Origin: an uncultured Veillonellaceae bacterium
GTDB taxonomy: Bacteria > Bacillota > Negativicutes > JARBTT01
Length of the DNA stretch: 64,000 nt
Assembly: GCA_963805085.1 (NCBI GenBank)
Contig: CAWDTA010000004.1
Location: 224,001-288,000, forward strand
Direction: 5' to 3'
In this document: one piece after another, positions 17,578 to 47,058 of the stretch
Position numbering within the stretch: position 1 is the stretch's first letter
Layout of the letters: every line of letters starts with the position of its first letter
Notes under the pieces: generated by a model
Seen by the model: the letters and a program-made list of their open reading frames with translations, nothing else
Databases searched by the model: none
What the model was told of the DNA's origin: nothing
Translations under genes and position numbers: made by a program

Positions 17578-17919
17578 TTATATGCCATCACCGTACAGCC
17601 CTTGTAAATCTTCAAAACGATGTTTTTCTAACTTTTCAATTTGTGCCACTTTATAATCCTTAATATTGATACTGATTTGCCCAAACTTAATATCTTTTAA
17701 ATAGCAATTTAACTTCTTACGTAAATTTTCATGAATCTGCTTGTTTGATAAAGTTCTTTTTTCTTTCTTTTTGCTGATGCTGGCAGCATCCAAACGAAAT
17801 TTTTCTGTTTTTTCAAATTGAATAAGACGTCCATCTTGAACTGTCAAAATTACCGTACCATAGCCTGTATCTATCACTTCATCTTCAATCAAAGTCCAAG
17901 CTTCTCCCGATATGATCAA
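17578..17919 (-). CDS. Tandem DUF2292 (YezD/OscA-like) protein with CysE-like C-terminal tail
   Basis: Two repeats GYGTVILTVQDGRLIQFEKTEKFRL and KFGQISINIKDYKVAQIEKLEKHRF; ends LYGDGI; TTG start after GGTGGTGA (alternative GTG 17940). Confidence 0.8.
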   Translation of the reverse strand: MIISGEAWTLIEDEVIDTGYGTVILTVQDGRLIQFEKTEKFRLDAASISKKKEKRTLSNKQIHENLRKKLNCYLKDIKFGQISINIKDYKVAQIEKLEKHRFEDLQGLYGDGI

Positions 17920-18046
17920 TGCAATCTCACCACCAAACACTTCGTTTTTAAATTACATAGAAAGTTCCCGTAAAATGTTCCTTTTTTACATTTATAGGTA
18001 TACTATCATATAAAGCCATTTTTTTCAATTGGATCTATCAATGATT

Positions 18047-18910
18047 CTATAATGCGGTTTTTAACTTTTCGGTAAACTCCGCCCAACCAATACGCTCAAG
18101 CATCGTATAGAAACGTTCTTTCTTTTTGCCATTGGCTGCAAAATAGTCAAGTGTGATATCGATTACTTTATAAACCTCTTCAACACTAAATACTATTGGT
18201 ATAATTTTCTTACCAATAGCGATGGTATTGCCAAATAAACCGCCAAAATAAATTACAAATCCTTCTCGCCCTGTCCAGGACTTTCTCGGACAAATCTTAA
18301 CGCATTTGCCGCATTGTACACATTTATTTTCATTATAGTTTAATGTTTTTTTATTTTTATTTACGCGAATTGCTTTTCCTGGGCAGACTTTTACACAAGC
18401 GCTACAATAAACACAGTCGTCTTCCGACCACGCTGGCTGTAATCCACCTTTAATACCAATATCATTGATATCAGCTTTCAGGCAATTATTTCTACAGCCA
18501 GTAACACCAATTTTGATCTTATGTGGCAACTCACGACCATAACAACGTTTGTCAATTTCATCGGCAAGTGCTATCGTGTCAACATGCCCATGCTGACAAA
18601 CAGCATTTCCTTGACAGGCCGTTACCGTTCTAACTCTTGACCCACATACGCCAATTTGAACTTCACCATCTGCTAGTGCAGCTTTAAAAGCTTCGATATC
18701 TTCCAATTTGATATAGGGTATTTCCACGCTTTGTCTGGAAGTAATATGCACATAACCTTTGCCATATTTTTCAGCCGCTTCACTGATGGTCTGCAACTGC
18801 TTAGCAGTAATTTGTCCGCCGATCACCCTCAATCTTACCGAAAAATGATCTGCCTGATTTTGTAACATAAATCCATTGCTTTTTAAATTTTTATAATCAA
18901 CTTGTACCAT
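18047..18910 (-). CDS. Siroheme sulfite/nitrite reductase-like protein with 2x[4Fe-4S] (AsrC-like)
   Basis: HITSRQ, TACQGNAVC, GVTGCRNNC, two CxxCxxCxxxCP. Confidence 0.88.
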   Translation of the reverse strand: MVQVDYKNLKSNGFMLQNQADHFSVRLRVIGGQITAKQLQTISEAAEKYGKGYVHITSRQSVEIPYIKLEDIEAFKAALADGEVQIGVCGSRVRTVTACQGNAVCQHGHVDTIALADEIDKRCYGRELPHKIKIGVTGCRNNCLKADINDIGIKGGLQPAWSEDDCVYCSACVKVCPGKAIRVNKNKKTLNYNENKCVQCGKCVKICPRKSWTGREGFVIYFGGLFGNTIAIGKKIIPIVFSVEEVYKVIDITLDYFAANGKKKERFYTMLERIGWAEFTEKLKTAL

Positions 18911-18952
18911 AAAAATTCTCCTTTATCTTATATTTTCAAAAACGCCAACACC

Positions 18953-19012
18953 AAAAAGGCAAAAGAGACAGAATTACACCTGTTATCTTTTGCCTTCAGT
19001 TATCTGATCAGC
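18953..19012 (-). promoter_or_regulatory. Leader attenuator copy 1 (21-nt hairpin plus overlapping terminator)
   Basis: GCTGATCAGATAACTGAAGGC then AAAAGATAACAG..CTGTCTCTTTTGCCTTTTT; promoter TTGACA(19067)-17-TAAATT. Confidence 0.8.
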
Positions 19013-19244
19013 TAAATATTGAATTTACTATTTCATCTAATTTACTAGTTTTTTATTGATTTGTCAATATAAAGATTACATTTCACCTTACTTCTTTATG
19101 AAAAATTCTATTCTATATTGTTTTGACTATATAGTAAAATACATTTGTAGTTAATCCAACAACACTTGCGGTTATATTAAAAGGCAATTGTACAAGCTCG
19201 GTGCTTTCATTAATATTGCTGACAATCATCCAATTTTAGAAATA

Positions 19245-19305
19245 ACAAAAGGCAAAAAATATAAGGTCATTTCTTATATCTTCTGCCTTCAGCTTTCCGA
19301 TCAGC
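19245..19305 (-). promoter_or_regulatory. Leader attenuator copy 2
   Basis: GCTGATCGGAAAGCTGAAGGC then AGAAGATATAAG..CTTATATTTTTTGCCTTTT. Confidence 0.75.
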
Positions 19306-19395
19306 TAAATATTAAATTGGTTATCTTAAATTACGTTAAATATAATTCCGTTCATGAGAGCTAACTATCATTTAGTGATTTCGTTAAAGCAAATT

Positions 19396-19473
19396 TTATT
19401 TAGGTGCAATAGCAGTCACAAAAGTAAGCACCAATAATATTGCCATAATTCCATAATTTGTCTTTTGATTCAT
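19396..19473 (-). CDS. 25-aa hydrophobic peptide (small protein or gene remnant)
   Basis: AAGGAGG RBS, MNQKTNYGIMAILLVLTFVTAIAPK*, directly after attenuator copy 3. Confidence 0.5.
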   Translation of the reverse strand: MNQKTNYGIMAILLVLTFVTAIAPK

Positions 19474-19494
19474 AAGAAATACCCTCCTTGATAA

Positions 19495-19556
19495 TAAAAA
19501 GACAAAAGTAATAGATTCTAAAATCTATTGCCTTTGCCTTTAGATTTCTAATCAGC
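19495..19556 (-). promoter_or_regulatory. Leader attenuator copy 3
   Basis: GCTGATTAGAAATCTAAAGGC plus terminator; consensus promoter TTGACA(19611)-17-TATAAT. Confidence 0.8.
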
Positions 19557-19854
19557 AAACCGCACTGTTTATTGATTTTTATATTATAATCCATTTTCAT
19601 AATTTTGTCAAGTATTTTTATAATTCAAGTGTGTGAATGATATACGATAATGTCCTATTATACAGTTTTTGATTATGTCCCAATCCACATGATATACTGT
19701 AGCCTTATTCAGAAAATATAGAATGTTACAGTTTTTTATTTATCTATTGTTTTTTTCCTTTTTTGTGTTAATATTATTGATTATACAATTAACTATATTT
19801 GGAATAAATATTAGTTAATACGTCATTAACAATATTAATAAGGAGGATTTTCTT

Positions 19855-20708
19855 ATGCAAATTTTAAGCAAAAACTTCCTATATATTCATTTGGTCGTTT
19901 TATTCTTTGCATTTTCTAGTTTATTTGGTGAGCTAATAACGTTACCAGCTCTTGCCATAATATTGGGTAGAGTCTTTTTTTCTTCGGCATTCCTATTTAT
20001 ATTCTCTCAATATAATAAAGAAACATTACGGTTTTCCAAGCGGATTAATCATGCCTATCTTGCTTTAATGGGGATTATCCTAGTGATTCATTGGGCAACA
20101 TTCTTTCAATCAGTGCAGCTGTCTACAGTCGCCATTGGCCTGCTGACGTTTTCCATCTTTCCTTTACTCGTACCTTATATGGAAAACTTCTTTTTAAAGA
20201 AAAGCTCAAACTCTCTGATATTATCATGGCAAACATCATGTTCTGCGGTATTTTATTGATATTACCAAACTTTGAAATACCCAATGCCACCATCCAAGGA
20301 ATACTTTACGGTTCTATCGCTGGTTTTACTTATGCAAATTTATCCTTGATTAACCGTAAATGTGTAAAAGAGTATTGTAGCCTCGTGATCTCGCTCTATG
20401 AGCAGGCAGTGGCAACGACATTTCTACTACCATTTCTTTTTATTGAAACACCTAAATTTACAATAAATGATATTTTATTACTCATGATTTTAGGTACAAT
20501 TTTGACAGGTATTGCACATGCATTATTTATTCATGGCTGGAAAAGTATTTGCGCTAAAACATCAGGTATGGTCACTTATTTTGAACCCATTTACGGAATC
20601 ATCATTGCTACAATGACGATTCAAGCAATTCCTACTGTTAATGAGATGTTTGGTGCCGTTATCATACTAAGCACTGTACTCTATCATTCCTTTAATCAAA
20701 GAGCTTAA
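19855..20708 (+). pseudogene. EamA/DMT transporter, frameshifted
   Basis: Two overlapping ORFs form one DMT; one extra A in the run at 20183-20186 would restore YMEKLLFKEKLK. Confidence 0.8.
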
Positions 20709-20725
20709 GATTCGTTATTAAACGC

Positions 20726-20765
20726 AAAAATTCCGTAGTGTATGTTCGGCACTACGGAATTTTTT
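20726..20765. terminator. Bidirectional terminator
   Basis: aaaaattccgtagtg / cactacggaattttt. Confidence 0.85.
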
Positions 20766-21072
20766 TATTTAAGCATAAGTCACAAACTAAATTAAAATAA
20801 CAAAATTGTACAAAAAGCCAACACATAGTGTAGGCTCACTTGAATCTTGACTTTTTGTATCTTCGTTGGTGTATTTTATCGAATTATTCGAAACAAACAA
20901 AGCATTAGCAATCATTAATTGCAATTATTTTTTATTAATCAATATTTATAGTTTACCTATTAGGAGTGGTTTTGTCAATAAACAAAAGTGTTTTTTTATG
21001 TATTTTTCTTGAACACTTTACCTATGAAATTTCAATAACTCTTTACTAAACATTACAATGGTAAGAAAAGTA

Positions 21073-21245
21073 AAAAAAAGCTAGCAAATCTGCTAGCTTT
21101 TATTTTGGGTTGTTTTTATGGAAACCTGAGCTACAAATTAAAGCGTACAAGGCAAGTACGCTATGTATTTCAGGAATATCAAAAATTTATTTATTGGATA
21201 TTTAGATTATTATTATTTATTAGCGCCTATCTATTAAATAACTTA
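21073..21245 (-). ncRNA. Candidate structured sRNA
   Basis: TTGACA(21281)-17-TAATCT; nested stems cctga/tcagg and agcgtac/gtacgct; terminator gctagca/tgctagc plus U-run. Confidence 0.35.
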
Positions 21246-21396
21246 TATTAATAGATTAATACTTATATGCAAGTTTGTCAACAACTAATTATAATAATAG
21301 TTAATGGTTTTATCTAGTAGTAATTAGTTTTATTAATTGTAATACTTATACTAAATAAGCTATTTAATAAAAATTATACAACATAAAAAACTATTT

Positions 21397-22806
21397 TTAC
21401 CAAAGTCCAAGTACTTTCCACCATGCACCGCCAATACCTAACCAAATTACTACGTTAAGAGTAGTAAGAATGAAACCAAGTTTCCACCATTCACCTTGTG
21501 TTACATAGCCTGCACCGAATATGATCGGACCTGCAGCGCCACCGAAGTGTGTTAACGGAATCATAATGTTAGATAAAAATGCAAATGCTAAAGCTGCAAG
21601 AAGTGGTGGTGCGCCTGCGGCTACCGAAATTGCAAGGAATGCCGCGTACATTGCACTGATATGTGCTGTAACGCTTGCGAAGCCATAATGCGCATATACA
21701 TAGACAATGATTAATATAGAAAATGCAGCAATCCAAGATAAGCCTGCGGCTGCGATTATTACACCTGCTGATTTAGCAATCCAAGCGATAAAACCTGATT
21801 TTTCAAGAGCAGTTGCCAATGCAATCAGTGCCCCCATCCAGAACATTGTATCCCAAGCGCCTTTTTCTTGGAGAATGTCTTGCCATGTGAGTGCATTAAA
21901 AACAACCATAACACAGACAGCCATCATTGCTACAACAGTTGCATTTATATGTGTAATATCAGAAGTTGCCCAGAGAACCAATGCACCAACGAATACACAA
22001 GCAACAATTTTTTCAATGGTTGTCATCGGTCCCATGATTCCAAGCTCTTTTTCCGCCAAACCTTTTGCATCTGGCATCGCTTTGATTTCCGGTGGATACA
22101 GTTTGTAAAGAACATATGGCATAACTAGAAGCGAAATCACCCCTGGAACAAAAGCCGCAACAGCCCAAGAATTCCAAGTTAATTGCACACCGATTGTTTT
22201 TGCTGCAAGCTCTGCAGAAAGTGGATTACCAGCCATTGCAGTTAAGAACATTGCGCAAGTGATTGCATTTGCATGGTATTCAACCTGCATGATATAAGCA
22301 CCAAACTTACGAGCAGTAGGCCCAGGTTCAGAGCCTAATGCAGATGAAAGACTTTTTATAATCGGGAATATAATCCCACCGGCACGCGCTGCACTGGAAG
22401 GTGTTGCTGGAGAAATAACGAAATCACTCAAGGTGATTGCATAGCCAAGTGTTAAGGAAGATCTACCAATTAATTTAATAATAACGAAAGCAATTCTTCT
22501 ACCAAGACCGCTCTTGATAAAGCCACGAGCAAATAAAAAAGCACAAATGATAAGCCAAATCGTACTATTACCAAAGCCAGCAAGTGCTTCATCTAGCTTC
22601 AATGTATTAGAAAATGCCGAGAAGGTAACAGAAATTAATGCAATTGCTCCGATTGGCAATGGTTGTAAAATAAAGCCTAGAATTGTTGCAGCAAAGATTG
22701 CAAATAAATGCCACGCTGTTACTTTTAACCCTTCTGGCACGGGACAGAACCAAAGGATGATACCAAACGCAAGCACTATTGCTGCATTACGAGTGTTTTT
22801 ATTCAT
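21397..22806 (-). CDS. DASS-family di/tricarboxylate transporter (CitT/TtdT-like)
   Basis: AWHLFAIF, SGLGRRIA, TPSSAARAGG, MFLTAMAGNP, WWKLGF. Confidence 0.93.
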   Translation of the reverse strand: MNKNTRNAAIVLAFGIILWFCPVPEGLKVTAWHLFAIFAATILGFILQPLPIGAIALISVTFSAFSNTLKLDEALAGFGNSTIWLIICAFLFARGFIKSGLGRRIAFVIIKLIGRSSLTLGYAITLSDFVISPATPSSAARAGGIIFPIIKSLSSALGSEPGPTARKFGAYIMQVEYHANAITCAMFLTAMAGNPLSAELAAKTIGVQLTWNSWAVAAFVPGVISLLVMPYVLYKLYPPEIKAMPDAKGLAEKELGIMGPMTTIEKIVACVFVGALVLWATSDITHINATVVAMMAVCVMVVFNALTWQDILQEKGAWDTMFWMGALIALATALEKSGFIAWIAKSAGVIIAAAGLSWIAAFSILIIVYVYAHYGFASVTAHISAMYAAFLAISVAAGAPPLLAALAFAFLSNIMIPLTHFGGAAGPIIFGAGYVTQGEWWKLGFILTTLNVVIWLGIGGAWWKVLGLW

Positions 22807-22928
22807 ACTATTCGCACCTTTCATCTCTGACTACTGAAAGGTGTCAATATTATGCAATAAGCGATGGAGCGAACCCCACCGCCTATTGTAATATAACCTA
22901 ACAGTTGTCTTCCACTGTTTCTTCATTG

Positions 22929-24278
22929 TTATTTTGCGTTGTATTTTTCAAGGACACGATCAGCAAATTGTGGAGCATACCCTATATAGTTATGAGGATC
23001 AATCATCGATGCAATTTCTTCGTCAGTGAAAGCTTCACGGACTTTTGGTTCTGCTTTTAACGCCACATCCATAAATTCTTCTTCTTCGTATGCTTTCATA
23101 CAAGTTCTGTAAACAATATCATGCGCAGTCATACGACCTAATTTAGGTGCTAAGTGCATCATTACGCATTCGCTCATCATGATACCTCTTAATTTATTTA
23201 AGTTATTTTCCATGTGTTTAGGGTAAACGATTAAGTTTTCTAATACATCCATAGATTTTTCAAGAGCAGCACCTAATAAGTGACAAGCACGAGGAATCGC
23301 TTCCCATTCACTAATGAAACAGCCCCAATCACGTTCATTTTCACTTACCATTGATTCAACAACAGCAGGAGCAATGCTTCTTACATTACGGCAAAGAGCG
23401 ATAATATTTTCAACAACTTGAGGATTGCGTTTATGAGGCATTGTGGAGGAACCAACTTTCCCCATGAAAAACGGTTCTTCTAATTCAATAATTTCAGTTC
23501 TTTGTAACGAAAGAATCTCACTTGCAATTTTACCGATTGTACCAGCGACGATTGCAAGTGTGCTAGCAAATTCAGCTTGGTTATCACGTGCTACATGCCA
23601 AGAAATAGTTGGAACGTTTAATTCTAGTATTTCCATCATTCTAGCTTGAACTTCAAGACCTTTTTCAGGATGAGATGCTAAAGTGCCAACAGCACCAGAC
23701 ATTTGACCAACAAATACTCTATCTTTCATCGCTTCCATACGTTCGATGTTTCTACCAATTTCATCAGCCCATATAGCAACTTTGTAGCCAAGAGTGATCG
23801 GTAATGCATGGATTACATGCGTACGACCACACATGATTGTATCTCTGTGCTCTTTCACTAATTTAAGCACTGATTTTTGACAAATTTTCAATTGATCAAG
23901 TACTATATAATATGCATCTCTCATTTGAAGAACAAGACCAGTATCTACAATATCTTGGCTAGTTGCGCCCCAGTGAACATATTCACCTGCATTATCATCT
24001 AAGACAACTTTAAAAGCTTTCAATAAAGGAACGATTGTTATTGAACTTTTATAATATTCACCGATTTGTGGTATATCTAGCAATTCAGCGTTTGCTTTTT
24101 TATTGATTTCGTCAGCTTTTGCTTTCGGAATAATCCCTAGTTCTCCTTGCGCTTTTGCAAGTGCTGCTTCTGTATCTAACCATTTTTGAGCGACATTTTT
24201 ATCACTAAAAACCTCTCTCATTTTTTCTGTACTAAATAAACAACCAAAAATTTCACTGTCGATAGCTGTTGATGCCAT
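22929..24278 (-). CDS. Fumarase/aspartase-superfamily lyase (adenylosuccinate-lyase-like)
   Basis: VHWGATSQDIVD, GRTH, GSSTMPHKRNP. Confidence 0.9.
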   Translation of the reverse strand: MASTAIDSEIFGCLFSTEKMREVFSDKNVAQKWLDTEAALAKAQGELGIIPKAKADEINKKANAELLDIPQIGEYYKSSITIVPLLKAFKVVLDDNAGEYVHWGATSQDIVDTGLVLQMRDAYYIVLDQLKICQKSVLKLVKEHRDTIMCGRTHVIHALPITLGYKVAIWADEIGRNIERMEAMKDRVFVGQMSGAVGTLASHPEKGLEVQARMMEILELNVPTISWHVARDNQAEFASTLAIVAGTIGKIASEILSLQRTEIIELEEPFFMGKVGSSTMPHKRNPQVVENIIALCRNVRSIAPAVVESMVSENERDWGCFISEWEAIPRACHLLGAALEKSMDVLENLIVYPKHMENNLNKLRGIMMSECVMMHLAPKLGRMTAHDIVYRTCMKAYEEEEFMDVALKAEPKVREAFTDEEIASMIDPHNYIGYAPQFADRVLEKYNAK

Positions 24279-24653
24279 AAAAAAAAATCCCCTCTCAATG
24301 TGAATATTCTTATTATTTTAACTACTCGGATGTGCGCACATCCGAGTTAAGGATTAACCTTGCCCTTATACTATCATAGGTAAAATTAATAGTTAAATAT
24401 CTATAGGTTATTATTTAATAAGTTAACCTTATTTACATATAAATACAGCTTTTAGTAGTGTTATTAGGCACTTTCAATAAGTTCTATTTATTAATCATCT
24501 ATATTGGTATAGACACTTATGTTATTTATAATTTTAACTTATCTTTTAATAACTTTTCACTATCTACCATTCATATTTGGCATAGTAAACGAATGACTTT
24601 CTATGCTACACTTTGAGTATGGATTATATTATAAACAGTAGGAGTTGCACATA

Positions 24654-25526
24654 ATGGAATTAAGACAACTAGAATACTTTCTTATGGTAAGCAAAGTAAA
24701 CAGTTTTACGCGAGCAGCCGAACGATTATACGTTTCGCAACCAGCCGTTACGAATGCAATTCGCAGTCTCGAAGAAGAACTTGGTATTCAATTATTTGAC
24801 CGTAGCCAAAAGCAAGCATTATTAACTACAGAAGGACAAGTATTTTACAATCACGTTGAGAATGTAATGCATGGTGTCTCCAAAACCATATCGGAGATTA
24901 ATGAACTGAAAAATTTAAATACTGGAATTCTAAAGCTTGGTATTACACCATTAGCAGGCGTTACGCCAATTCCGCAACTACTTGCGAAATTTAGAAGAAC
25001 ATATCCAAATATCCAAATATCTTTTATAGAAGAAAATGTATCTGTTATTCAAAAATCACTGATTGAGGATAAAGTTGATTTAGGCATAATTATAAATGGT
25101 GAAACTAGCAGCCTCCTAGAAACTTCTATATTAGGTACAGACGAATTGGTAGTGTGTTGTTCAAAAAATCATAGATTTAGCAACCTTACATCCATTGATT
25201 TATCTGAATTAGTCGAAGAACCGCTTATCTTACTCAGTCATGGTTGCTTACTTCGAAAGCTAATCATCACTGAATTTGAGCGTATCAATACGTTGCCACA
25301 AATAACATTTGAATCAAATCATATTCAAACAATAAAAAGTTTAGTTGCTTGTGATATCGGGCTATCCGTTATTCCTCGTGACTTATGTGAAAAAGATTCT
25401 AATCTGATTGCTATCCCTTTAAAAGAGCCTATATATATTACAATTTCTATTGCTCAAAAGAAAAATAAATATCTCTCCCATGCAGCTCAAGCAATGTTGC
25501 ATTTAATTTCTAATATCAATCAATAA
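24654..25526 (+). CDS. LysR-family regulator, divergent from lyase
   Basis: SFTRAAERLYVSQPAVT..LEEELGIQLFDR. Confidence 0.95.
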   Translation: MELRQLEYFLMVSKVNSFTRAAERLYVSQPAVTNAIRSLEEELGIQLFDRSQKQALLTTEGQVFYNHVENVMHGVSKTISEINELKNLNTGILKLGITPLAGVTPIPQLLAKFRRTYPNIQISFIEENVSVIQKSLIEDKVDLGIIINGETSSLLETSILGTDELVVCCSKNHRFSNLTSIDLSELVEEPLILLSHGCLLRKLIITEFERINTLPQITFESNHIQTIKSLVACDIGLSVIPRDLCEKDSNLIAIPLKEPIYITISIAQKKNKYLSHAAQAMLHLISNINQ

Positions 25527-25661
25527 ATCACTTGAACAATATATCAGTTATATAATTGATTGCAAAAATTAAACATCAAATTTATTATGATTAGAATGAT
25601 TCAATCGATATGAACTTTACGAATCAATATCGATTTGAAATACGAAAGGAACTTAACAATC

Positions 25662-26573
25662 ATGAATCTAAAAATTGCAGCAGTCGGCAGTAGTCCGCTG
25701 ATCGCAGGAGAAATTCTCGATGCCACTAAGTTCATTATTGGCGATGAAATTAATATCAAGACTTATTCGACCTATGAAATACAAGATGATACCGTAGCAG
25801 ATATCTATATATGCGCAAAATCGCAATTGAACTCATTAAAAAAAGTAATTTCATCTAACAAAATCGTACTTTTAGAATTAATTCCAACCTCAAAGTTTTT
25901 TATAGCCGTTGCTCGGATTCCACAAGGTGAAACAATCTACATATTTAATAATCAATTGGAATACACAACAACACTTGGCAACTATTGCGAAAACCTTGGT
26001 ATTAATGGTGTACATTTCTTACCAATTGCTTATGAAGAGATGCCTAATGAAGAAGTATTTGCTCGATTAAAAGAAGCACACTATATTATTGGTGTTGATA
26101 AATTTGTCGGTAATAAAGTATTAAAATCAGCAAAATACGCCCCTTATCTCCGTGATGATGTAAACATTATAGAAGGTACACGCGTTGCATCCGTTCATTC
26201 TGCTTGTGCACTATTACAATGTCTTGCAACCAACTTCCACAGATCTATTGAAAATAGCGTATCCGCTATTACTACAAAACTAAAAAATCCCCCTACCCAT
26301 TCCAAGCAGGAAATCGACAGGATTCATAATGAAGTTACTAAACTAGTATTTTATAGTAATAAAGTTATGGATATCATTCAAAATGCCGTAATAAAATCTG
26401 TAGTTAATCACATTTCACCAGATATTGCCATTTTTGATAAAACAGCCGAAGAATATCCAACCTTCAACACGCAACACACTACAAATCACCCAATTTGTAA
26501 TTCCTTAGAATCCATAACTAATCTAAATAATACCCTTCTCCTAATTGCAAAAAAATTAGCAAAATTAAATTAA
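25662..26573 (+). CDS. Hypothetical protein
   Basis: Long ORF with RBS AAAGGA; no recognised motif. Confidence 0.7.
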   Translation: MNLKIAAVGSSPLIAGEILDATKFIIGDEINIKTYSTYEIQDDTVADIYICAKSQLNSLKKVISSNKIVLLELIPTSKFFIAVARIPQGETIYIFNNQLEYTTTLGNYCENLGINGVHFLPIAYEEMPNEEVFARLKEAHYIIGVDKFVGNKVLKSAKYAPYLRDDVNIIEGTRVASVHSACALLQCLATNFHRSIENSVSAITTKLKNPPTHSKQEIDRIHNEVTKLVFYSNKVMDIIQNAVIKSVVNHISPDIAIFDKTAEEYPTFNTQHTTNHPICNSLESITNLNNTLLLIAKKLAKLN

Positions 26574-26577
26574 TCTA

Positions 26578-26616
26578 CAAAAAAATCCGCTTTGCAAATT
26601 TACAAAGCGGATTTTT
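26578..26616. terminator. Bidirectional terminator
   Basis: aaaaatccgctttg / caaagcggattttt. Confidence 0.8.
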
Positions 26617-26647
26617 CAACTCTATATTTTTTTATTGGCTTACAATA

Positions 26648-27343: not shown

Positions 27344-27711
27344 GATGCATTCCTGCTTTCGCGAAACCGAACGATAAATTCGGTAACAATACCGACAAAT
27401 ACTACAACCAAACAAATGCTAGCACCAATGACAAATAACAGTTGTGCCCAATCATTCTTTAATGCATCTTGGAATTGAATAACACCAATGGCTGATGGAA
27501 TGAAAAATAAAAGCATTTCGGCAATCAAAAAGTTTGCCCCTAATTCAATTTTTTCCAATGGCAGCCACTTTTGTTTAATAACAACAAATAACAATAATAT
27601 CCCTAAAATACTGCCCGGAATCCCAATATTTAAAGCACTAGATAGCACATTACCAGCAAAACTAATTGCACATAGACCTAAAATTTGAATTAAAATACTT
27701 ACGATTTTCAT
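27340..27711 (-). CDS. cidA: CidA/LrgA family protein
   Basis: IPGSILGILLLF, GANFLIAEMLLFFIPSAIG. Confidence 0.88.
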   Translation of the reverse strand: MKIVSILIQILGLCAISFAGNVLSSALNIGIPGSILGILLLFVVIKQKWLPLEKIELGANFLIAEMLLFFIPSAIGVIQFQDALKNDWAQLLFVIGASICLVVVFVGIVTEFIVRFRESRNAS

Positions 27712-36902: not shown

Positions 36903-36960
36903 AAACAAGTATTTATCCAAATATACTTCCCCTAGGAAACATTCACGGAATAAATTACCA

Positions 36961-36995: not shown

Positions 36996-37084
36996 TGAAC
37001 TTATAACAAAGCAAGAACAGCATACTTGTCATACATACTTTAAAGTACGATTTATATTTATCAATTGAAGGGATATGATCTTCC

Positions 37085-38740: not shown

Positions 38741-38749
38741 ATAATCAGC

Positions 38750-38795
38750 AAAATACCGTATTGATCGATTTAATTTTGATCAATACGGTATTTTT
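38750..38795. terminator. Bidirectional terminator
   Basis: aaaataccgtattgatc / gatcaatacggtatttt. Confidence 0.85.
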
Positions 38796-38860
38796 AATGA
38801 AAGATGATGTTAAAAACATACTTGAACAATTTTTGCAATCTGGTAAATCAATTGTTTACT

Positions 38861-39300
38861 TTAAAACAAAGGTGGAATGAGTCGATAAATAATATCATGC
38901 AGCAAATTATCATCATTACTTACACCGATGATATCTGCGACTTTTTTCACCTCTGGCTCTGCATTGGCTGGAGCGACACCTAAATACGCTAGTTTTATCA
39001 TTTCGATATCATTTTGAAAATCACCAGTCGCAACAACGACTTTATTTTTATATTCTTCCATTTTTAAAATTTTTCACCAAGCATACTGCCTTTTGATATC
39101 GCTTTACCAACAAGTTCTAGATAAATTGGAGCAGAAAAGAAGTAGTTCATCGCCTCATCCAGCTGGAATTTTACTAATACTTCACGAACGGTAAGTAAAT
39201 TCTCATTTGTATCACACAAAAGAATATTGATCCATTCTTCACCTAAAATTTCATCTAGCTTTGCATAAACAAATGCTTCTTTTTCACGTTCCATATGCTC
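38861..39300 (-). pseudogene. Cof-type HAD phosphatase, C-terminal fragment, frameshifted
   Basis: YLEL..SKG and GDFQNDIEMI..GVAPANA motifs split over two ORFs; N-terminal DxD motif missing. Confidence 0.8.
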
Positions 39301-39301
39301 A

Positions 39302-39400
39302 TCAACATTTTAGGCTCGGTAACTTATCGCCACCACCGCAACCAGCTAATAGCGTAGTAGCTAAGACTAGCATCATCAATAACGACATCATCTTTTTCAT
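39302..39400 (-). pseudogene. Lipoprotein 5' remnant (signal peptide only)
   Basis: GGAGG RBS; MKKMMSLLMMLVLATTLLAGCGGGDKLPSLKC*. Confidence 0.65.
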
Positions 39401-39690
39401 AAGACTTTCCTCCATTTCTATAATTTCTATTTGTATTCATTGTATATAATGAATATTCTAAACAATCACAAAATTAATTTAAATGCCCCAAATACTGAAC
39501 TTCGTGATTTTTTTATTTAAAACTTCCAATTTGTTTTATTCTCTCACTTGCTAAAGAACAGAATAAGGCGTATTTAACAATTCTCTCTTGTCAAATACAC
39601 CTTATTCTCATCATTTATTTTCTTTTTAAAATATCTTAGCAATTCTCAATATAAAACTCCTATAATCCGCCTTGCGCAATGTTTTATAGA

Positions 39691-41418
39691 TTAAATATAG
39701 TATTCCAGATTCTCTGCCGTAAGTTTTTCTAAATAGCGCACTGCTTTAAATTGCCCGAATTGAAACCATTGATTGCTAAACTTTGCATTCACAGAATCTG
39801 TTTCTAACGAATCAACCGCCTGCATAAAATTCTGAAATTCTTTTTCTGAATGTACCTTGATTCCTGCACCGCCGATTTCAACCAAAGTTTCTCCCAAATA
39901 GCGATATGCAGCTAGATCGACAATACTGCGTAGTTTAGCATTTCTTACTTGTGCAATTCTTTTATGCTGTAGATCAACGAGTGAGAAATCAACCGGGTAT
40001 TCGTAGGTTTGCCCCGTTACCGGCAAAACATCACCAGTTTTAAAATCACGTAGCTTACCAGAAATCTTTTTCACTGTATTTTCTGCTAACACATAATAGA
40101 ATTCATCAAAACAACTGATCTCTATGTGTTTTTCTTGATCACTGAGCGTGCTTTTACTGGTAACTTTTTCGGCAAGCCCGGAAACAATGCCACCACCACA
40201 GACATCATAGCCATCCACAATGACAAACCGCCCCGTATGCTGATTGTTTTTAAATGCATCCAGACAGATTTTTATCTTGGTTTTGATAATAACTTCCGCA
40301 ACATCATTGAGTTTTACCTGTTTTGCTTGCTCAACACTGTCCAAAGTTGTCGCATCAATTACTTGGGTAATATCAACGATTTCACAGCTCACCTCTTGCG
40401 TAGCTAGCTTCAATATATATTCTTTATGCTTCACAAGCTCTTTTTTACCTAACCAAAAAAGATTGACCTTAAACGTATCCGTCACCAAAGGCTGATCCTC
40501 TAAATGACTGATAAATTCACCCCGTTGGTTGAAAAATTCATCAGCCACCGTAATGCCAACCGACATCCCTGCTGTTACCTTGTCTTGCTCATCTTTATCT
40601 ACCCAATGTTCAATACTTTTTACCGTCGTCACTTTCTGACTTGGCGAAATTAAAATTTTATCACCCACCCGCAACGTACCGGCTTCGATCCGCCCCGCAA
40701 TAATCCGACGATGATCAAATTTATATACATCTTGTATCGGAAACCGCAATGGCTTTCCTTCTAAACTATTATCTTTTTCAAAAAGGTCAATCGCCTTAAG
40801 CAGTGGTTCCCCTTGATACCATGGCATCTTATCGGAAGTCGCTGTAATATTTTCACCATAAAAGCCTGAAATAGGGATATATTTAAGTGGATATACCTGT
40901 AAATCATGCAGAAAAACATTCATCTCTTGACGAATCTGGTTAAACTGCTCTTCTGAATAATCGATTAAATCCATCTTGTTCATGAGTACATAGACTTTTT
41001 GAATGCCTAGTAATGACAATATATAACCATGACGACGCGACTGCTCTTGAATCCCTTCATTGGCATCAATAATAAGCAATGCCGCTTCCGCATTTGCCGC
41101 TCCTGAAATCATGTTTTTCAAGAATTCTTTATGACCAGGGGCATCAATAATAACATAGTCGCGCGCCTCGGTGCAAAATTGCAGCTGCGTTGTATCAATG
41201 GTAATCCCTTGCTTTTGCTCTTCTTCAAACGCATCTAATAAATAGGCATATTCAAAAGGTTTCCCCTTTTCCTTTGCAATTCTTTTTACTTTTTCCACTG
41301 CACCTTCCGTTAAGGAATGGGTATCATATAATAAACGGCCAATTACCGTTGATTTTCCATGATCTACATGACCTACGACGACAATATTTAATACTTCTCT
41401 ATCTACATTTGTACTCAC
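39691..41418 (-). CDS. cysN: Sulfate adenylyltransferase GTPase subunit with C-terminal extension
   Basis: [32 protein letters not shown]; follows cysD. Confidence 0.92.
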
Positions 41419-41481
41419 AGGATTACCTCCATCTTCTCTTTAATCTTTAACATGGCATTATTACTCTTTAACTTTCTCTTT

Positions 41482-42282
41482 TTACATGTAACCATCTTTG
41501 CGAAGTTTTTGCATAGCATAAGAATCTTCCTGATCCTGCGCACGACCAGCGCGTTCGCTCACCTTGGTATTTTTCAATTCTTCAATAATCTCAGGAATCG
41601 TAATTGCCTCTGAATCAATTTGTCCTGTACAAGGCGCACAACCTAAACTGCGATAACGTTTCCCATTTTTCGCAAAATATAAATCGACAACTGGAATTTG
41701 TTCACGTTCGATATATGCCCAGATATCAAGTTCATTCCAATGTAAAATTGGATGTACCCGAATATGATTTCCTTTCGGAAAATCTGTTTTGAATTGATCC
41801 CATAATTCTGGTGGTTGATTGGTATAGTCCCATTCTGAATCTTTGTTGCGTTCACTAAATACTCTTTCTTTAGAACGCGAGCCTTCTTCATCACGCCGAA
41901 TCCCCAAAATTAATCCTTCAAATTCATATTGTGTTACCACCTGCTGCAACCCGTCAGTTTTCAAAGCTTTACAGCAGACCAAGCGTCCCTTTTCCGGGCC
42001 CATCCCAGCTTTTAACGCTGCTTCATTTGAATGCACGATTAAATCCAATCCATATTCTTTCGCCATCTGATCGCGAAAAGCAATCATTTCAGGAATTTTA
42101 TACTTTGTATCCACATGAATAAACGGAAACGGACAGTGACCAAAAAAAGCCTTTTTTGCTAGCCACAATAATACCGTAGAATCTTTGCCTATTGACCACA
42201 ACATGCCTAGCTTACCAAATTTTTTATAAGCTTCGCGTAATATATAAATACTTTGTGCTTCTAATCTATCTAAATGATCCAT
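41482..42282 (-). CDS. cysD: Sulfate adenylyltransferase subunit 2
   Basis: [39 protein letters not shown]. Confidence 0.96.
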
Positions 42283-42315
42283 TTTACCTACTCCTTTACT
42301 CTCTATAACTTTTAA

Positions 42316-42630
42316 TTAATAGGCATTGGCCTTTTGCTGATCAATGGTAATCACCGTTTCTTTTCCTTCAGGAGAAATGACGTGCCAATGCAAAAAACCA
42401 TTTTCTTTCTTCGTAAATAACAAACTACCCCGACCGCCAATATCAGCACCTAAATAATAATAAATGGCCTGATATGCACATTCTTTTACACAGGAAGTGC
42501 AGCCCCAGCAATCTTTGGGCTGCTGGATACAAGCTTTACCTTTATCATTTTGGGTTAATAGATTGCCAGGACACACCTGCTGACATTTTCCACACCCACG
42601 ACATTTTTTCTGATCAATTGTTATGCTCAT
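42316..42630 (-). CDS. aprB: Adenylylsulfate reductase beta subunit (ferredoxin)
   Basis: CRGCGKCQQVCP, DCWGCTSCVKEC; overlaps aprA. Confidence 0.85.
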   Translation of the reverse strand: MSITIDQKKCRGCGKCQQVCPGNLLTQNDKGKACIQQPKDCWGCTSCVKECAYQAIYYYLGADIGGRGSLLFTKKENGFLHWHVISPEGKETVITIDQQKANAY

Positions 42631-44305
42631 AAACCTCACCCTTTTTCACCAGATCACGCAAGATAATTTTTACTTGGCCTTCTTGCATCACTGAATTTAC
42701 AAATTTCAGCCAATGTTCATCATCTTTTTCTGGATAGTCGGCATTTTCTTGAAACGAATGCCACCTAGTTTCTTTTCTTGCTTCCAGGTGGTAAATTAGC
42801 ACTTTGCATACTTCTAGGCGATCAATTACTTCATAAATTTTTAACAACTCCATCATACTATCGGCTTTTAACGCTAAACTAAGTTTACGCAACTCATCAA
42901 TATGGATTTTTGCCTGCTGTAATTTTGCCGTGTTAAACATGTATCCTGAAGAAATTCCCCCAGCATAATCATCCATTATTTTTTGCATAGCCTCTTCGAT
43001 ATCTTCACTATAATAGATACTTGGTTTATCTCTCAAAAAGGATTCCACAGATTCTACTGCCAATTGGATTTGCTCAGCATCGACTTCACTAGCTACAAAC
43101 GGTTGGTTTAGATACTCCATCGCTGCCTGCCCAGCGATTTTTCCTTCAACAAAGCAACCAGTTACATACTTTTGCGGACTACCACCCGCTACATCACCAG
43201 CAGCATACAAACCTTGAATGGTAGTCGCTCTATTGGTATCCACCCAATACCCACTTCCAGTATGCCCGCCTACGATATAGGGCTCCGTTCCTTCGATTTC
43301 AACGTTTTCGTTAGCAGGGCCCACTCCATTCTCTAGCCAACGCAGCGCTTGGGCTGGCGCCATATTTAAATAGGCTTTATAGAGATCATCTTCCTGCTTT
43401 TCTGTAATGCCAGCGGTATTTAAATAACAGGGTCCAGCACCGCGCTGGTTTTCCTGCACCGTCGAATATAACCTAATCGAGGTTTTAGGCTTACCATATT
43501 TTCTCTCGTACAGTTCACCACAGCTATTGATTTGCTCTGCACCGATTCCCTGCGCAATCGTTCCCGTAGGCGCAATCGTATCTTTACACCGCAAAGCAAT
43601 GAACCGCATTTCAAAGGTTGTCATTTCTGCCCCAGCACGGATGCCCATTGCATACCCAGCACCAGTGTTAAACGGACTATACCACATTTTATGGCGTGAA
43701 AAGCCTGGATTATTGGGTCGATATAGACCAGAAGCTCCGCCGGTAGCACAGATCACAGCTTTTGCTAAGATGACATAAAAAATCGGCTGATCTAAAGAAA
43801 AACCGTAAGCGCCAACGACTCGCCCATCGCTCACAATATAATCGGTAATATTCACACGATTCAAAACGGTAACATGATCAGCCTTCTCTACAGCACTTGC
43901 CAATAATGGTTTGATATTTTCGCCATTGATTTTAATGTTGCGATTGCCGCGCGTTACATACTCACCCTGACTGTCTTTTTGAATCACCAGACCTAAATCT
44001 TCCATCGTCTTTGTCACCTGATTTAGCTCCGCTGCCATGCTAGCTACCAAGTCTTCTCTGATAATAGCTTCAGCATCACTCCTGACATAATCGACATAAT
44101 CTTCAGGTGTCTGACCTTGAACAATATAAGCATTTAATGCATTCACGCCCGCCGCTAAACAACCGCTTCGTTTGATATTGGCCTTTTCAACAATGAGCAC
44201 CTTCGTCGCTTTCTGCTCCGCCACCGTAAGAGCGGCAAAACATCCGGCTGTACCGCCACCGATAATTAAAATATCTGTTTCTAATTTCACCGTTTCTAAA
44301 TTCAT
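42614..44305 (-). CDS. aprA: Adenylylsulfate reductase alpha subunit (flavoprotein)
   Basis: GGGTAGC, EKANIKRSG, INGE, RKETRW; clostridial assimilatory-operon context. Confidence 0.9.
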   Translation of the reverse strand: MNLETVKLETDILIIGGGTAGCFAALTVAEQKATKVLIVEKANIKRSGCLAAGVNALNAYIVQGQTPEDYVDYVRSDAEAIIREDLVASMAAELNQVTKTMEDLGLVIQKDSQGEYVTRGNRNIKINGENIKPLLASAVEKADHVTVLNRVNITDYIVSDGRVVGAYGFSLDQPIFYVILAKAVICATGGASGLYRPNNPGFSRHKMWYSPFNTGAGYAMGIRAGAEMTTFEMRFIALRCKDTIAPTGTIAQGIGAEQINSCGELYERKYGKPKTSIRLYSTVQENQRGAGPCYLNTAGITEKQEDDLYKAYLNMAPAQALRWLENGVGPANENVEIEGTEPYIVGGHTGSGYWVDTNRATTIQGLYAAGDVAGGSPQKYVTGCFVEGKIAGQAAMEYLNQPFVASEVDAEQIQLAVESVESFLRDKPSIYYSEDIEEAMQKIMDDYAGGISSGYMFNTAKLQQAKIHIDELRKLSLALKADSMMELLKIYEVIDRLEVCKVLIYHLEARKETRWHSFQENADYPEKDDEHWLKFVNSVMQEGQVKIILRDLVKKGEVYEHNN

Positions 44306-44339
44306 CTATCTAATTCCTTTCTTCCAGCATTGAACTACC

Positions 44340-45113
44340 TCACGCGCGATCTAGTCCCCAACGTTGTCGAATATTTTGTTCTATTTGCCCAAAAATTAAC
44401 TTATCTACCACCACGCCCAATACGATAATCACAATCATCACTGCCATAACCTGACTGATATCGGCTAAATCGCGACCGACCATTAAGACTTGCCCGAGGC
44501 CTTTTGTCGCCGACATCATTTCACCAGCCATAAGAGCCCGCCAAGCAAAAGACCAGCCTTGTTTTAAACCCGATACAATCGCAGGCAAACTCGCTGGAAG
44601 AATTACATTCCAATAAATTTTAAAACCACTAGCGCCCATCGTCCTTGCCGCTCTAATATAAAGTGGATTGATATTTTTTATTCCAGCTTCGAGGGCAATG
44701 GCTACAGCAAACGTCGAGCCAATGGCAATTACAAACATAATGGCACTTTCATTTAGTCCATACCACAAAATCGCAAAAGGGAGCCAGCAAATACTAGGTA
44801 ATGTTTGCAAGCCTAAAATCAAAGGACTGGCATTTTCATCCAACCACTTAAATTTGACGATAATAAGTCCAATGATCAAGCCCAATATCACCGATACGAA
44901 ATATCCCAAAATGATTCGCTTTGCACTTGACAATATGGCAATAACAAGCGTTTGATCAGCAAATAAACTATATAAAGTTTTAAAGACATCAATGGGGGAA
45001 GGAAAAACATACGCCTTCCAAAGCCTTAAATAATCTACGCCAAGTTCATACGCCACTTCCCAAATTATCATTAATACTAGGTAAAACAGGATTTTTTTGA
45101 ATATTCCAGTCAT
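44340..45113 (-). CDS. NitT/TauT/SsuC-type ABC permease
   Basis: LQTLPSICWLP, EAA-like RAARTMGAS, GWSFAWRALMAGE. Confidence 0.92.
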   Translation of the reverse strand: MTGIFKKILFYLVLMIIWEVAYELGVDYLRLWKAYVFPSPIDVFKTLYSLFADQTLVIAILSSAKRIILGYFVSVILGLIIGLIIVKFKWLDENASPLILGLQTLPSICWLPFAILWYGLNESAIMFVIAIGSTFAVAIALEAGIKNINPLYIRAARTMGASGFKIYWNVILPASLPAIVSGLKQGWSFAWRALMAGEMMSATKGLGQVLMVGRDLADISQVMAVMIVIIVLGVVVDKLIFGQIEQNIRQRWGLDRA

Positions 45114-45885
45114 TATCGTATTCAGCTTTTGCAACCTTCTCAACCTCCGTCTTCAATTCTTGCATAATATTATTCATTAAATAAGCCAAATCAACATTAC
45201 CTGGTTGACGTGGTCTTGCGACTTGAATCTGAAATTCTTTTTTGATTCCACCAGGATTCGCTGACATAACCACAACACGATCTGCTAATATGGTTGCTTC
45301 TTCTACATTATGGGTAACAAATAAAATCGTTTTTTTCGTTTCTAGCCAAATCTGCTGCAATTCAATTTGTAGTAGCATCTTGGTCTGACTATCTAGTGCG
45401 GCAAATGGTTCATCCATAAGAAGCACTTCTGAATCAAAGGTTAGCGCTCGCGCGAGTGCTACGCGCTGGCGCATCCCTCCTGATAATTCATGAATAAAGG
45501 CATGTTGGAACTTCGTTAAATGCACCATTTTTAAGTATTTCAACGCGCGCTCACGCCGCTGTGCTGGCGCTACCCCCGCCATTTTCATACCAAATTCTAC
45601 ATTGTCGATCACATTGAGCCAAGGAAACAATGCTGCTTCTTGAAACATCACGACTCTGTCCGGTCCAGGCCCCGTTACTTGCTTGCCATTCAGAGTCACC
45701 CTACCGGACGTCGCTTCTTCAAGCCCAGCGATGATATTAAGCAACGTAGATTTACCACAACCAGACGGGCCTAGGATACAAATAAATTCGCCCGGCTTAA
45801 ATTCAATATTTACCTTTGATAATGTTTCGGTATCACTGTGCTTGGTGATAAACCGCTTACTAACATCTTCAACTTTAATACTCAT
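45046..45885 (-). CDS. NitT/TauT/SsuB-type ABC ATPase
   Basis: GPSGCGKST, LSGGMRQR, LLMDEPF. Confidence 0.95.
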   Translation of the reverse strand: MSIKVEDVSKRFITKHSDTETLSKVNIEFKPGEFICILGPSGCGKSTLLNIIAGLEEATSGRVTLNGKQVTGPGPDRVVMFQEAALFPWLNVIDNVEFGMKMAGVAPAQRRERALKYLKMVHLTKFQHAFIHELSGGMRQRVALARALTFDSEVLLMDEPFAALDSQTKMLLQIELQQIWLETKKTILFVTHNVEEATILADRVVVMSANPGGIKKEFQIQVARPRQPGNVDLAYLMNNIMQELKTEVEKVAKAEYDNDWNIQKNPVLPSINDNLGSGV

Positions 45886-45898
45886 CTTCAACTCCACC

Positions 45899-46933
45899 TT
45901 ACTCTATTTCTGGCAAGCCCTTATCTTTTAACACTTTATTTAAGATTTTTAGATTAAACAAAGTTTTTGTATCAGGTTTTTCTTTTAAGAAACCTGCTTT
46001 TTGTGATAAATCGACAAAATCAAGCACTGCTTCTTTTTCTGGGTCATTTGTTACGGTTACGCGAGCAAAAGCTGATGTCAATACATCTTCTGCCAATGGC
46101 TTCCCCGTAAGCTCCTTAATTTGTGCATTGATAATGCTACTAGCCTCGTTTTGATTTTTTTGGATATACGCAGTTAACTCCACATGTTTCTTTAAAAATT
46201 TCTCTACTAAATCTGGATGTTCTTCAATGAATTTTGTTCTAGCAACGACTACTGCGGTACTATATTTGCCTTCGCGCCAAACTTTATCATAATCTAATAC
46301 CACTTTTGCATTAACTTCTTTTATCAATCTTGCTCCCCAAGGTTCTGGTACCAAAGCTGCATCTATTTCACCTTTATCTAAGAGTGTCTTAATATCTGGG
46401 TTATTCGCTTGCACAATCTCTACTGTACCGCCCTTAGTCGTATCCTTTAACCCTTGCGCTGATAAAAGATAACGCAAGGATAAATCTTGTGTATTACCAA
46501 ATTGCGGTATGGCAATTTTCTTCCCACTTAATTCTGCTAAATTGTTGATTGTCACATCTTTTCGCGAAACTAAGATTGCCCCAGCATCGGTAGCGCCAGC
46601 AATAATCTGAATATCACCCTTTGATTTTGCATAACCACTAATCGCTGGTCCTGGTCCAATATATCCAATATCAACTTCACCAGCAAACAATGCTTCAATT
46701 TCGGATGGCCCCGCATTAAAAGCTTCCCATTCTACAGGATTACTTTCGCCTAGTGCTTGTTGGAATTCTCCTTTTGCTTTGCCGACCAAAGCTTGCGAAT
46801 GCGTAATATTCGGGAAAAATCCAATACGGACTTTGGTATTATCACTACTGGCTTTTTCAGTGCCACAACCGGCTAACACCGCTCCTAACGTAGTAAAGAT
46901 AAATAATATCACTGCCATTTTTTTTATATTCAT
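45899..46933 (-). CDS. Sulfonate/sulfate ABC substrate-binding lipoprotein (SsuA-like)
   Basis: LAGC lipobox, GFFPNITHSQA, FNAGP, PQFGNTQD, PEPW. Confidence 0.9.
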   Translation of the reverse strand: MNIKKMAVILFIFTTLGAVLAGCGTEKASSDNTKVRIGFFPNITHSQALVGKAKGEFQQALGESNPVEWEAFNAGPSEIEALFAGEVDIGYIGPGPAISGYAKSKGDIQIIAGATDAGAILVSRKDVTINNLAELSGKKIAIPQFGNTQDLSLRYLLSAQGLKDTTKGGTVEIVQANNPDIKTLLDKGEIDAALVPEPWGARLIKEVNAKVVLDYDKVWREGKYSTAVVVARTKFIEEHPDLVEKFLKKHVELTAYIQKNQNEASSIINAQIKELTGKPLAEDVLTSAFARVTVTNDPEKEAVLDFVDLSQKAGFLKEKPDTKTLFNLKILNKVLKDKGLPEIE

Positions 46934-46983
46934 GTAAGCCATCTCCTTTATCATTTCCCTCATTTCAGCCTTTTCGGCAATAG

Positions 46984-47058
46984 AAAAAGACCAAGAAGCA
47001 CTCTTCTTTAGAAATTTTCTAAGAAAAGTACTTCTTGGCCTTCGGTTTTCCGATCAGC
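46984..47058 (-). promoter_or_regulatory. Leader attenuator copy 4, heading the sulfate-assimilation operon
   Basis: GCTGATCGGAAAACCGAAGGC then CAAGAAGTAC..GTGCTTCTTGGTCTTTTT; promoter TTGACA(47105)-17-TATCAT. Confidence 0.85.

Follow-up and report, generated by a model that had tools for sequence, protein, structure and literature searches.

A leader RNA hairpin of sulfur genes in Negativicutes and its candidate partners, a tandem DUF2292 protein and CysK

Leader hairpins in front of sulfur genes

The window analysed here is a stretch of 64,000 nucleotides (nt) of contig CAWDTA010000004.1 (positions 224,001 to 288,000; assembly GCA_963805085.1) from an uncultured Veillonellaceae bacterium. 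It carries four copies of a 21-nt repeat in front of genes including those for a sulfite/nitrite-reductase-like protein and a sulfur operon. The repeat is the core of a leader RNA hairpin of about 28 nt, which consists of a basal helix (P1), a G-A/A internal loop, an inner helix of 4 base pairs (P2) and an A-rich loop of 4-5 nt. This hairpin is very probably a regulated antiterminator RNA of the sulfur regulon, and a tandem DUF2292 protein encoded in the window is considered below as its partner. The features concerned, all on the minus strand, are as follows, with the hairpins given by the 28-nt span of the covariance model.

17578-17940, minus: tandem DUF2292 (YezD family) protein, open reading frame (ORF) of 120 aa, C-terminus YGDGI, after the NIR_SIR gene
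18047-18910, minus: small sulfite/nitrite-reductase-like protein, 287 aa (NIR_SIR, NIR_SIR_ferr, two 4Fe-4S motifs), led by copy 1
18955-18997, minus: terminator hairpin after copy 1, -21.2 kcal/mol
18988-19015, minus: copy 1 leader hairpin, core 18992-19012, covariance model 43.6 bits
19039-19067, minus: promoter-like TTGACA-17-TAAATT before copy 1, 10/12 matches
19250-19288, minus: terminator hairpin after copy 2, -25.5 kcal/mol
19281-19308, minus: copy 2 leader hairpin, core 19285-19305, covariance model 36.8 bits without the last four model columns
19396-19473, minus: 25-codon ORF with a ribosome-binding site behind copy 3, product apparently hydrophobic
19498-19541, minus: terminator hairpin after copy 3, its 5′ arm beginning inside the motif AAGGC and a U-run coming next, -19.2 kcal/mol
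19532-19559, minus: copy 3 leader hairpin, core 19536-19556, covariance model 42.3 bits
19583-19611, minus: promoter-like TTGACA-17-TATAAT before copy 3, 12/12 matches
39691-46963, minus: operon led by copy 4, for an NMT1-type binding protein, ATP-binding cassette (ABC) ATPase, permease, AprA-like flavoprotein, 107-aa ORF (aprB by position only), CysD and CysN
46988-47041, minus: terminator hairpin after copy 4, -37 kcal/mol
47034-47061, minus: copy 4 leader hairpin, core 47038-47058, covariance model 41.3 bits
47077-47105, minus: promoter-like TTGACA-17-TATCAT before copy 4, 11/12 matches

When up to one mismatch is allowed, GCTGATNNGANNNCNNAAGGC has exactly four matches in the window, all on the minus strand and with 0 mismatches each; positions and letters agree with those listed in an earlier note on this DNA, and 0/100 dinucleotide-preserving shuffles of the window gave a match. 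The inner stems of the four copies pair as UCAG/CUGA, UCGG/CUGA (one G-U), UUAG/CUAA and UCGG/CCGA. Directly 3′ of each copy, a strong hairpin of -19.2 to -37 kcal/mol is predicted by ViennaRNA. Its 5′ base is the (A)AGGC of the motif, it is followed by a U-run, and it is the minimum-energy fold; isolated 29-nt leader hairpins adopt the proposed fold at -6.5 and -11.3 kcal/mol. Since the terminator is thus the default fold, the leader hairpin would have to be stabilised for readthrough, and the folds point to an ON device. TTGACA-17-nt promoters precede copies 1, 3 and 4, as had been proposed, and their -10 boxes end 12-20 nt upstream of the hairpin. No promoter of its own was found for copy 2, whose orthologue in genome G001 scores 39.0 bits with the covariance model. 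Outside the window the genome has two more copies, an exact one at C2:1174533 and a degenerate one at C2:1022370. Copies are seen in tandem on one leader, with three within 565 nt in the window (18992-19556) and two 100 nt apart in genome G021 (C28:13875 and 13976); such tandem copies, each with its own terminator, would sharpen the response.

The gene assignments of the earlier note hold by Pfam for the reductase-like gene and for the ABC-aprAB-cysDN operon, in which CysD is PAPS_reduct and CysN is GTP_EFTU, with the qualification that aprB is placed by its position only. The double-DUF2292 protein directly behind the reductase gene is likewise confirmed, as the ORF contains two PF10055 stretches (E 4.6e-20, 71.4 bits, with a Pfam cut-off of 22). 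Its likelier start is TTG at 17919, which gives 113 aa and agrees with the closest named relative. At 18028-18000, ahead of this gene, lies a weak promoter-like site that could be a source of basal DUF2292 expression, sites of this kind being no commoner there than in shuffles. The closest named relatives of the window proteins come from Anaerosinus/Massilibacillus and Propionispora, all Negativicutes. Homologous-protein searches with window proteins gave close relatives only (3 and 10 matches), and a related-locus search of genome contigs gave one locus (L089), from a Massilibacillus metagenome-assembled genome.

Fold, distribution and regulon of the element

Motif searches covered Negativicutes genomes: 41 related genomes, 251 of the class, and 150 for the covariance model (E <= 0.01). 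The strict pattern has 59 matches in 18 of the 41 related genomes, with 1 match for the reversed control, and it is matched in 94 of the 251 genomes of the class, with 4 matches in all for the reversed control. The covariance model was built on 37 instances, 2 of 39 distinct pattern matches having been excluded for lack of a 4-bp inner stem; it is positive in 69/150 genomes, with up to 28 copies per genome. A comparison with Rfam, suggested at the outset, matched no family: Rfam 15 gave 0 matches in the window at gathering scores, and permissive E-value scans of both leader regions gave generic hairpins far below gathering. No description of the motif was found in the literature searched (sulfur antitermination in Negativicutes, CysK with antitermination, O-acetylserine riboswitch), nor by a term search of PMC11109978; supplementary motif lists of riboswitch-discovery papers could hold it.

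The element is an RNA structure in which both alternative pairings are under selection. The stem positions left free by the pattern are both paired in 57 of the 59 raw matches from the 41 related genomes, and the pairs include G-U, which forms only on the transcribed strand. Covariation figures for the inner stem are biased by the exclusion mentioned above, and the flank pair -1/+22 is unbiased. This pair lies outside the pattern and reads AU 10, GU 7, GC 5, UA 5 and other 6 in 33 distinct rows, and its pairing measures drop when the 3′ partner is shifted by 1-3 columns; therefore P1 extends into the 5′ arm of the terminator. Among variants recovered with filters off, pair 2-20 has U-A instead of C-G in family f5, with a matching change in the 3′ arm of the terminator, and G-C in family f12. 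Compensatory changes in both helices, together with the G-U pairs and a fixed orientation of the copies relative to the genes, bear out the proposal that the covarying repeat acts as RNA and not as a DNA operator. The internal loop had been described as an invariant UGA/AG. Its G4 A5 opposite A18 stands, and the unpaired state of U3 does not: U3 faces G19, and one relative (L078) has C3-G19, so that the invariant unpaired core is G4 A5 opposite A18. The apical loop has 4 or 5 nt and is mostly A-first, otherwise variable.

The claim that AAGGC is also the 5′ base of a competing intrinsic terminator holds for the four folds in the window and extends well beyond it. An AGGC-based hairpin abutting a U-rich tract follows 91/93 distinct instances with a paired inner stem, as compared with 46/400 random AAGGC sites of this genome; under a strict U4 rule, the post-motif terminator is found for 74/93 instances. 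Known RNA modules were compared by eye on the sequence. The internal loop does not fit a K-turn (GA/AG register) or a T-box (UGGN bulge), and a loop E reading was also set aside. An ANTAR target needs two tandem hexaloop hairpins, whereas the element is a single hairpin with a 4-5-nt loop.

The genes led by the motif make up what is, from their domain content, a regulon of sulfur acquisition and of cysteine/methionine synthesis. The tally is based on 60 of about 250 strict-pattern matches, hand-picked from 14 genomes, and 56 of these have a first gene on the same strand. These first genes encode PALP, the family containing CysK (7), class I/II aminotransferase (6), ABC permease (6), Cys_Met_Meta_PP (5), Cons_hypoth698 (4), SBP_bac_3 (4), URO-D (3), AprA-like FAD_binding_2 (3) and DUF2292 (3). 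Later genes, of which 108/125 were scanned after 17 short or contig-end ORFs had been dropped by hand, encode ABC components, NMT1-type binding proteins, ferredoxins/Fe-S proteins and URO-D. In motif-led operons of loci L090-L149, nitrogenase-like genes (Oxidored_nitro in 5 ORFs, NifH-like in 4), URO-D-like methyltransferases and B12-binding proteins are recurrent, a set that suggests organosulfur salvage under sulfur limitation.

In the present genome, a URO-D-like gene and an amino-acid-type ABC transporter stand behind the exact copy at C2:1174533. Copy 3 leads the 25-codon ORF MNQKTNYGIMAILLVLTFVTAIAPK, the sole gene between copies 3 and 2, which has a strong ribosome-binding site and whose start recurs after the equivalent copy in genomes G001 and G004; its product is possibly a small membrane peptide that belongs to this regulon. 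Copy 4 directly follows a gene for a dCache chemoreceptor (window 47123-49213), and the degenerate sixth copy at C2:1022370 (L028), which has a promoter and a terminator, is situated between two dCache chemoreceptor genes. A link of chemotaxis receptors to the sulfur regulon is possible.

The tandem DUF2292 protein and CysK

The link between DUF2292 and the motif is, as far as gene content tells, strong and specific. A co-occurrence check across genomes had been set beforehand, and in the 150 genomes DUF2292 (PF10055) is present in 67/69 motif-positive versus 14/81 motif-negative genomes (odds ratio 160); 67 genomes have neither, 2 have the motif only and 14 have DUF2292 only. As a control from the regulon, NIR_SIR is present in 66/69 motif-positive versus 57/81 motif-negative genomes (odds ratio 9). 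Inside genera g3, g8, g14 and g43, motif and DUF2292 are present together or absent together from genome to genome. When DUF2292 loci of 3 kb were searched with filters off, 24/30 had a motif match of at least 19 bits within 1.5 kb, several of them in genomes that the strict pattern had missed. No such match was found in the other six (L060, L063, L064, L069, L074 at a contig edge, and L085); in L064 a loose regular expression detects a variant copy 5 nt past the DUF2292 stop codon.

Two layouts are found at these loci. In one, the motif is followed by cysK or a NIR_SIR gene and then by DUF2292, and two genomes have the motif directly before DUF2292. In the other, DUF2292 is followed by about 100-150 nt with promoter, motif and terminator, and then by cysK, a MetY-like gene or a sulfate-binding-protein-like gene. 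Regulator and target follow each other in this same order in sugar antiterminator systems. At locus L081 a DUF2292 relative lies directly upstream of a sulfate-binding-protein-like gene (named by eye), an arrangement comparable to the oscA-sbp gene order in Pseudomonas. At two loci (L068 and L080), an ORF resembling a PP-loop ATPase (SGGVDST motif, named by eye) adjoins the tandem DUF2292 gene, and in L080 its stop codon overlaps the DUF2292 start.

The tandem protein is modelled as two helix plus beta-hairpin units, with a mean predicted local distance difference test score (pLDDT) of 72 and a predicted template modelling score of 0.62. A PDB sequence search with the family profile had 0 matches at E <= 10, and an ESM Atlas search gave no usable match. 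The 18 aligned tandem proteins end in Gly-x-Gly-Ile, with the last Gly fully conserved and the other Gly and the terminal Ile almost so. A HMMER scan with a split 'B-type' domain gave 274 clusters at E <= 0.001, and among the homologues listed a GxG[IVL] end is found in 71/81 of at least 95 aa versus 13/75 shorter ones, 61/75 of the shorter ones having no such tail. In this genome only 2/5058 frames of at least 100 aa end in GxGI.

The YGDGI tail of E. coli CysE anchors in the active site of CysK, and the tail of the tandem protein in the window, YGDGI, is identical to it. The C-terminus of E. coli CysE is reported as INHTFEYGDGI and that of the CdiA-CT toxin as KGYGI (PMC6829319). The CysE tail depends critically on its terminal Ile, and the complex falls apart at micromolar O-acetylserine (PMC5562914); the CymR repressor docks on CysK in the same way by its C-terminal tail (bioRxiv 10.1101/2024.09.19.614015). 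The gene cysK adjoins 16 of the 30 DUF2292 loci. In this genome CysE itself (C4:125563-126045, L159; 248 aa, 252 bits to TIGR01172) ends in KDNVKSL, with no Ile tail. Its cysK gene is divergently paired with a CymR-like Rrf2 gene, whose product ends in MYFI, a CysK-docking tail of the CymR type. A NifH-like gene is found on the other side of cysK (L150).

The tandem protein probably binds CysK. The predicted complex of the two scores 0.56 (runs 0.55, 0.56 and 0.62), which is classed as 'weak support', and the best of 3 controls scores 0.00; contact agreement between runs is at least 96% and partner pLDDT at least 74. The mark for this score is reached by 58/80 solved complexes and 2/110 mismatched pairs, and at scores of 0.60 or less only 7/80 solved complexes passed, plus both of the passing mismatches. 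Custom alignments make the calibration only rough, and solved CysK-tail complexes exist, so that a pass may reflect likeness only.

Proposed mechanism and alternatives

The following mechanism is proposed. The leader RNA, if unaided, would fold into the much stronger terminator and transcription would stop, while a trans factor holding the hairpin would sequester the terminator base and allow readthrough by RNA polymerase. The most likely factor would be the tandem DUF2292 protein, whose place would be taken in some genomes by two single-domain genes. When sulfur is plentiful and O-acetylserine is low, CysK would hold the tandem protein via its tail. When sulfide is short, O-acetylserine would accumulate and release the tandem protein, which in its free form would bind the hairpin with the G-A/A loop and prevent termination. 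Because the tandem gene stands behind copy 1 in the window, the protein would also raise its own level by positive feedback. We infer four steps of this chain, namely that the protein binds the RNA, that it docks on CysK, that O-acetylserine sets it free and that control runs in the direction given, and the probability of the whole, a DUF2292-dependent antiterminator gated by CysK and O-acetylserine, is roughly 0.45. Its generalisation to a three-part sulfur sensor, in which CysK, a tandem DUF2292 protein with a CysE-mimicking tail and the 28-nt hairpin act at up to 28 operons per genome across Negativicutes, is put forward tentatively.

Several observations weigh against this mechanism. A Foldseek search with the tandem model gave nothing at E <= 0.001, and the best Z of a VIA-wide fold search was 5.0, so that no known RNA-binding fold is clearly matched; neither these searches nor the PDB sequence search tied the protein to RNA-binding attenuation proteins such as TRAP, PyrR, HutP, CsrA or Hfq. 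The protein had been called Lys/Arg-rich, which is true of the copy in the window and does not extend to the family as a whole: 18 relatives have isoelectric points between 5.4 and 9.5, five of them at 5.4-6.74. The median is 9.0 in 64 tailed representatives. Kinship among the 150 genomes inflates the co-occurrence statistics and overstates independence. The cysK gene of this genome (L150, C2:241500-245500) has no leader hairpin. Fourteen of the 81 motif-negative genomes carry DUF2292 with no confident motif; three of these (G005, G012 and G026) have weak variant motif matches beside the DUF2292 gene, and a second covariance model applied to five motif-less f12 genomes gave a clear match in G012 only. 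In G033 the tandem gene, with a GEGI tail, is isolated between a promoter and a terminator of its own. Either the tandem protein therefore has a role without this RNA in such genomes, or the target has diverged there. Conversely, two of the 69 motif-positive genomes (G043 and G088) have no DUF2292 even by profile at E <= 1. Both assemblies are fragmented (230 and 710 contigs) and several of their motif matches lie at contig ends. The induction of YezD/OscA genes by sulfur starvation fits a 'target' as well as a 'regulator'.

In the fragmented assemblies of G088 and G043 (L161-L171), many motif matches are found no more than 50 bases from a contig end. Short-read assemblies apparently break at the repeated leader-terminator, and such breaks could hide small flanked genes, DUF2292 for example.

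Many of the same observations would be expected if the hairpin were an antiterminator that depends on another protein or RNA factor, with DUF2292 a mere member of the regulon, for instance a CysK-binding modulator of cysteine synthesis. DUF2292 is often behind the motif, as any regulated gene would be; relatives without the tail are known as sulfur-starvation-induced genes in other phyla; the tandem protein persists in f12 genomes with no recognisable motif and resembles no known RNA binder clearly; and two motif-positive assemblies lack it. The genome also has other proteins of the antiterminator type, three with CAT_RBD (PF03123; C2:277420, 774329 and 1626083) and two with ANTAR (contigs C1 and C5). 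All of these are, however, distant from the six copies, and no other candidate is recurrent beside the motif in the loci read. Nor is a mere target expected to be present at 67/69 versus 14/81 given a motif that heads as many as 28 varied operons, the NIR_SIR control being retained in 57/81 motif-negative genomes. An unnamed factor is regarded as somewhat unlikely. A protein-free ON riboswitch of very small size, binding a metabolite such as O-acetylserine whose level goes up when sulfur is limiting, is unlikely. A conserved internal loop between covarying helices that compete with a terminator is riboswitch architecture, the genes downstream are for biosynthesis and transport, and no O-acetylserine riboswitch turned up in the literature searched; small terminator-embedded aptamers exist, as in the HMP-PP (hydroxymethylpyrimidine pyrophosphate) class (PMC6478431). 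Only about three unpaired invariant bases (G4, A5 and A18) and a variable loop could nevertheless contribute to a pocket, the leader up to the terminator is shorter than about 45 nt in all, and the near-strict dependence on DUF2292 would be left without a reason.

Control might also be absent altogether, the repeated leader and terminator hairpins serving RNA stability, processing or constitutive attenuation, as many copies per genome, some of them at contig ends, might suggest. This is very unlikely, since the copies are limited to promoter-proximal leaders of one functional gene class, a three-way compensatory change preserves both alternative pairings, and the default fold is a full terminator before genes that need expression under some condition. 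The least probable explanation, which deserves very little weight, treats the repeat as a DNA operator bound by a repressor, for example by the CymR-like Rrf2 protein whose gene is beside cysK. The copies do lie just downstream of -10 boxes and the genome does have a CymR-like gene, but G-U pairs work on the transcribed strand only, conservation is compensatory and not of half-sites, the orientation to genes is fixed, the pairing is shared with the terminator, and cysK, the neighbour of the CymR-like gene, has no copy.

The DUF2292-dependent mechanism is comparable to known systems only in parts. As in the BglG/SacY/LicT antiterminators with their RAT sites, an internal-loop hairpin overlaps the 5′ arm of a terminator, a protein would hold it for readthrough, and the regulator gene is often near or behind its own target; the earlier note had likewise compared the overlap with that of BglG/RAT. 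The tandem protein differs in having neither CAT_RBD nor PRD, and the proposed signal is sulfur via CysK instead of phosphorylation by the phosphotransferase system. In the CymR-CysK system of Bacillus and Staphylococcus, the Ile-ending tail of a cysteine regulator docks in the CysK active site and O-acetylserine reports the sulfur status; CymR is, however, an Rrf2 repressor that binds DNA and is active when complexed, whereas the regulator here is a DUF2292 protein that would act on an RNA hairpin when free. The Gly-x-Gly-Ile tail is common to CysE, CdiA-CT(536) and the tandem protein, although CysE is an enzyme and CdiA-CT(536) a tRNase toxin, and docking of DUF2292 is a weakly supported model. 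The HMP-PP (thiS) riboswitch is also a very small conserved element merged with an intrinsic terminator; unlike the present hairpin, which excludes the terminator, would be ON and is phyletically tied to a protein, it binds its ligand directly and is OFF. The logic thus matches factor-dependent antitermination of the BglG/RAT kind and the sensing matches the CymR-CysK kind, by analogy, and both the RNA and the protein belong to neither family.

YezD and OscA (PF10055) share the domain, which is doubled here, and the association with sulfate and cysteine genes. They differ in that most single-domain members do not have the Gly-x-Gly-Ile tail (61/75 short homologues) and in that no RNA element for them was found in the literature searched. 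For the short YezD/OscA proteins of other phyla, which have no tail, all that is known is that sulfur starvation induces their genes, and no functional study of DUF2292, YezD or OscA was found in the literature searched. No mechanism of sulfur or cysteine regulation has been described in the literature searched for Negativicutes, which count gut, oral and environmental anaerobes among their members.

The element is the apparent main cis-regulatory signal of the sulfur regulon of Negativicutes and is absent from Rfam. It would serve to annotate sulfur-responsive genes across many genomes, transporter, URO-D-like methyltransferase and nitrogenase-like genes among them, and it offers a candidate function for a domain which sulfur starvation induces in other phyla. 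The tail ties DUF2292 to CysK as a 'moonlighting' hub, whose other partners are CysE, CymR, a bacterial toxin and a nematode oxygen sensor. If the RNA itself senses a metabolite, it would rank with the smallest riboswitches and be the first one on the O-acetylserine branch. If the DUF2292-dependent mechanism is true, it would provide the first molecular function for the DUF2292/YezD/OscA family and the first case of CysK moonlighting in gene control at the RNA level.

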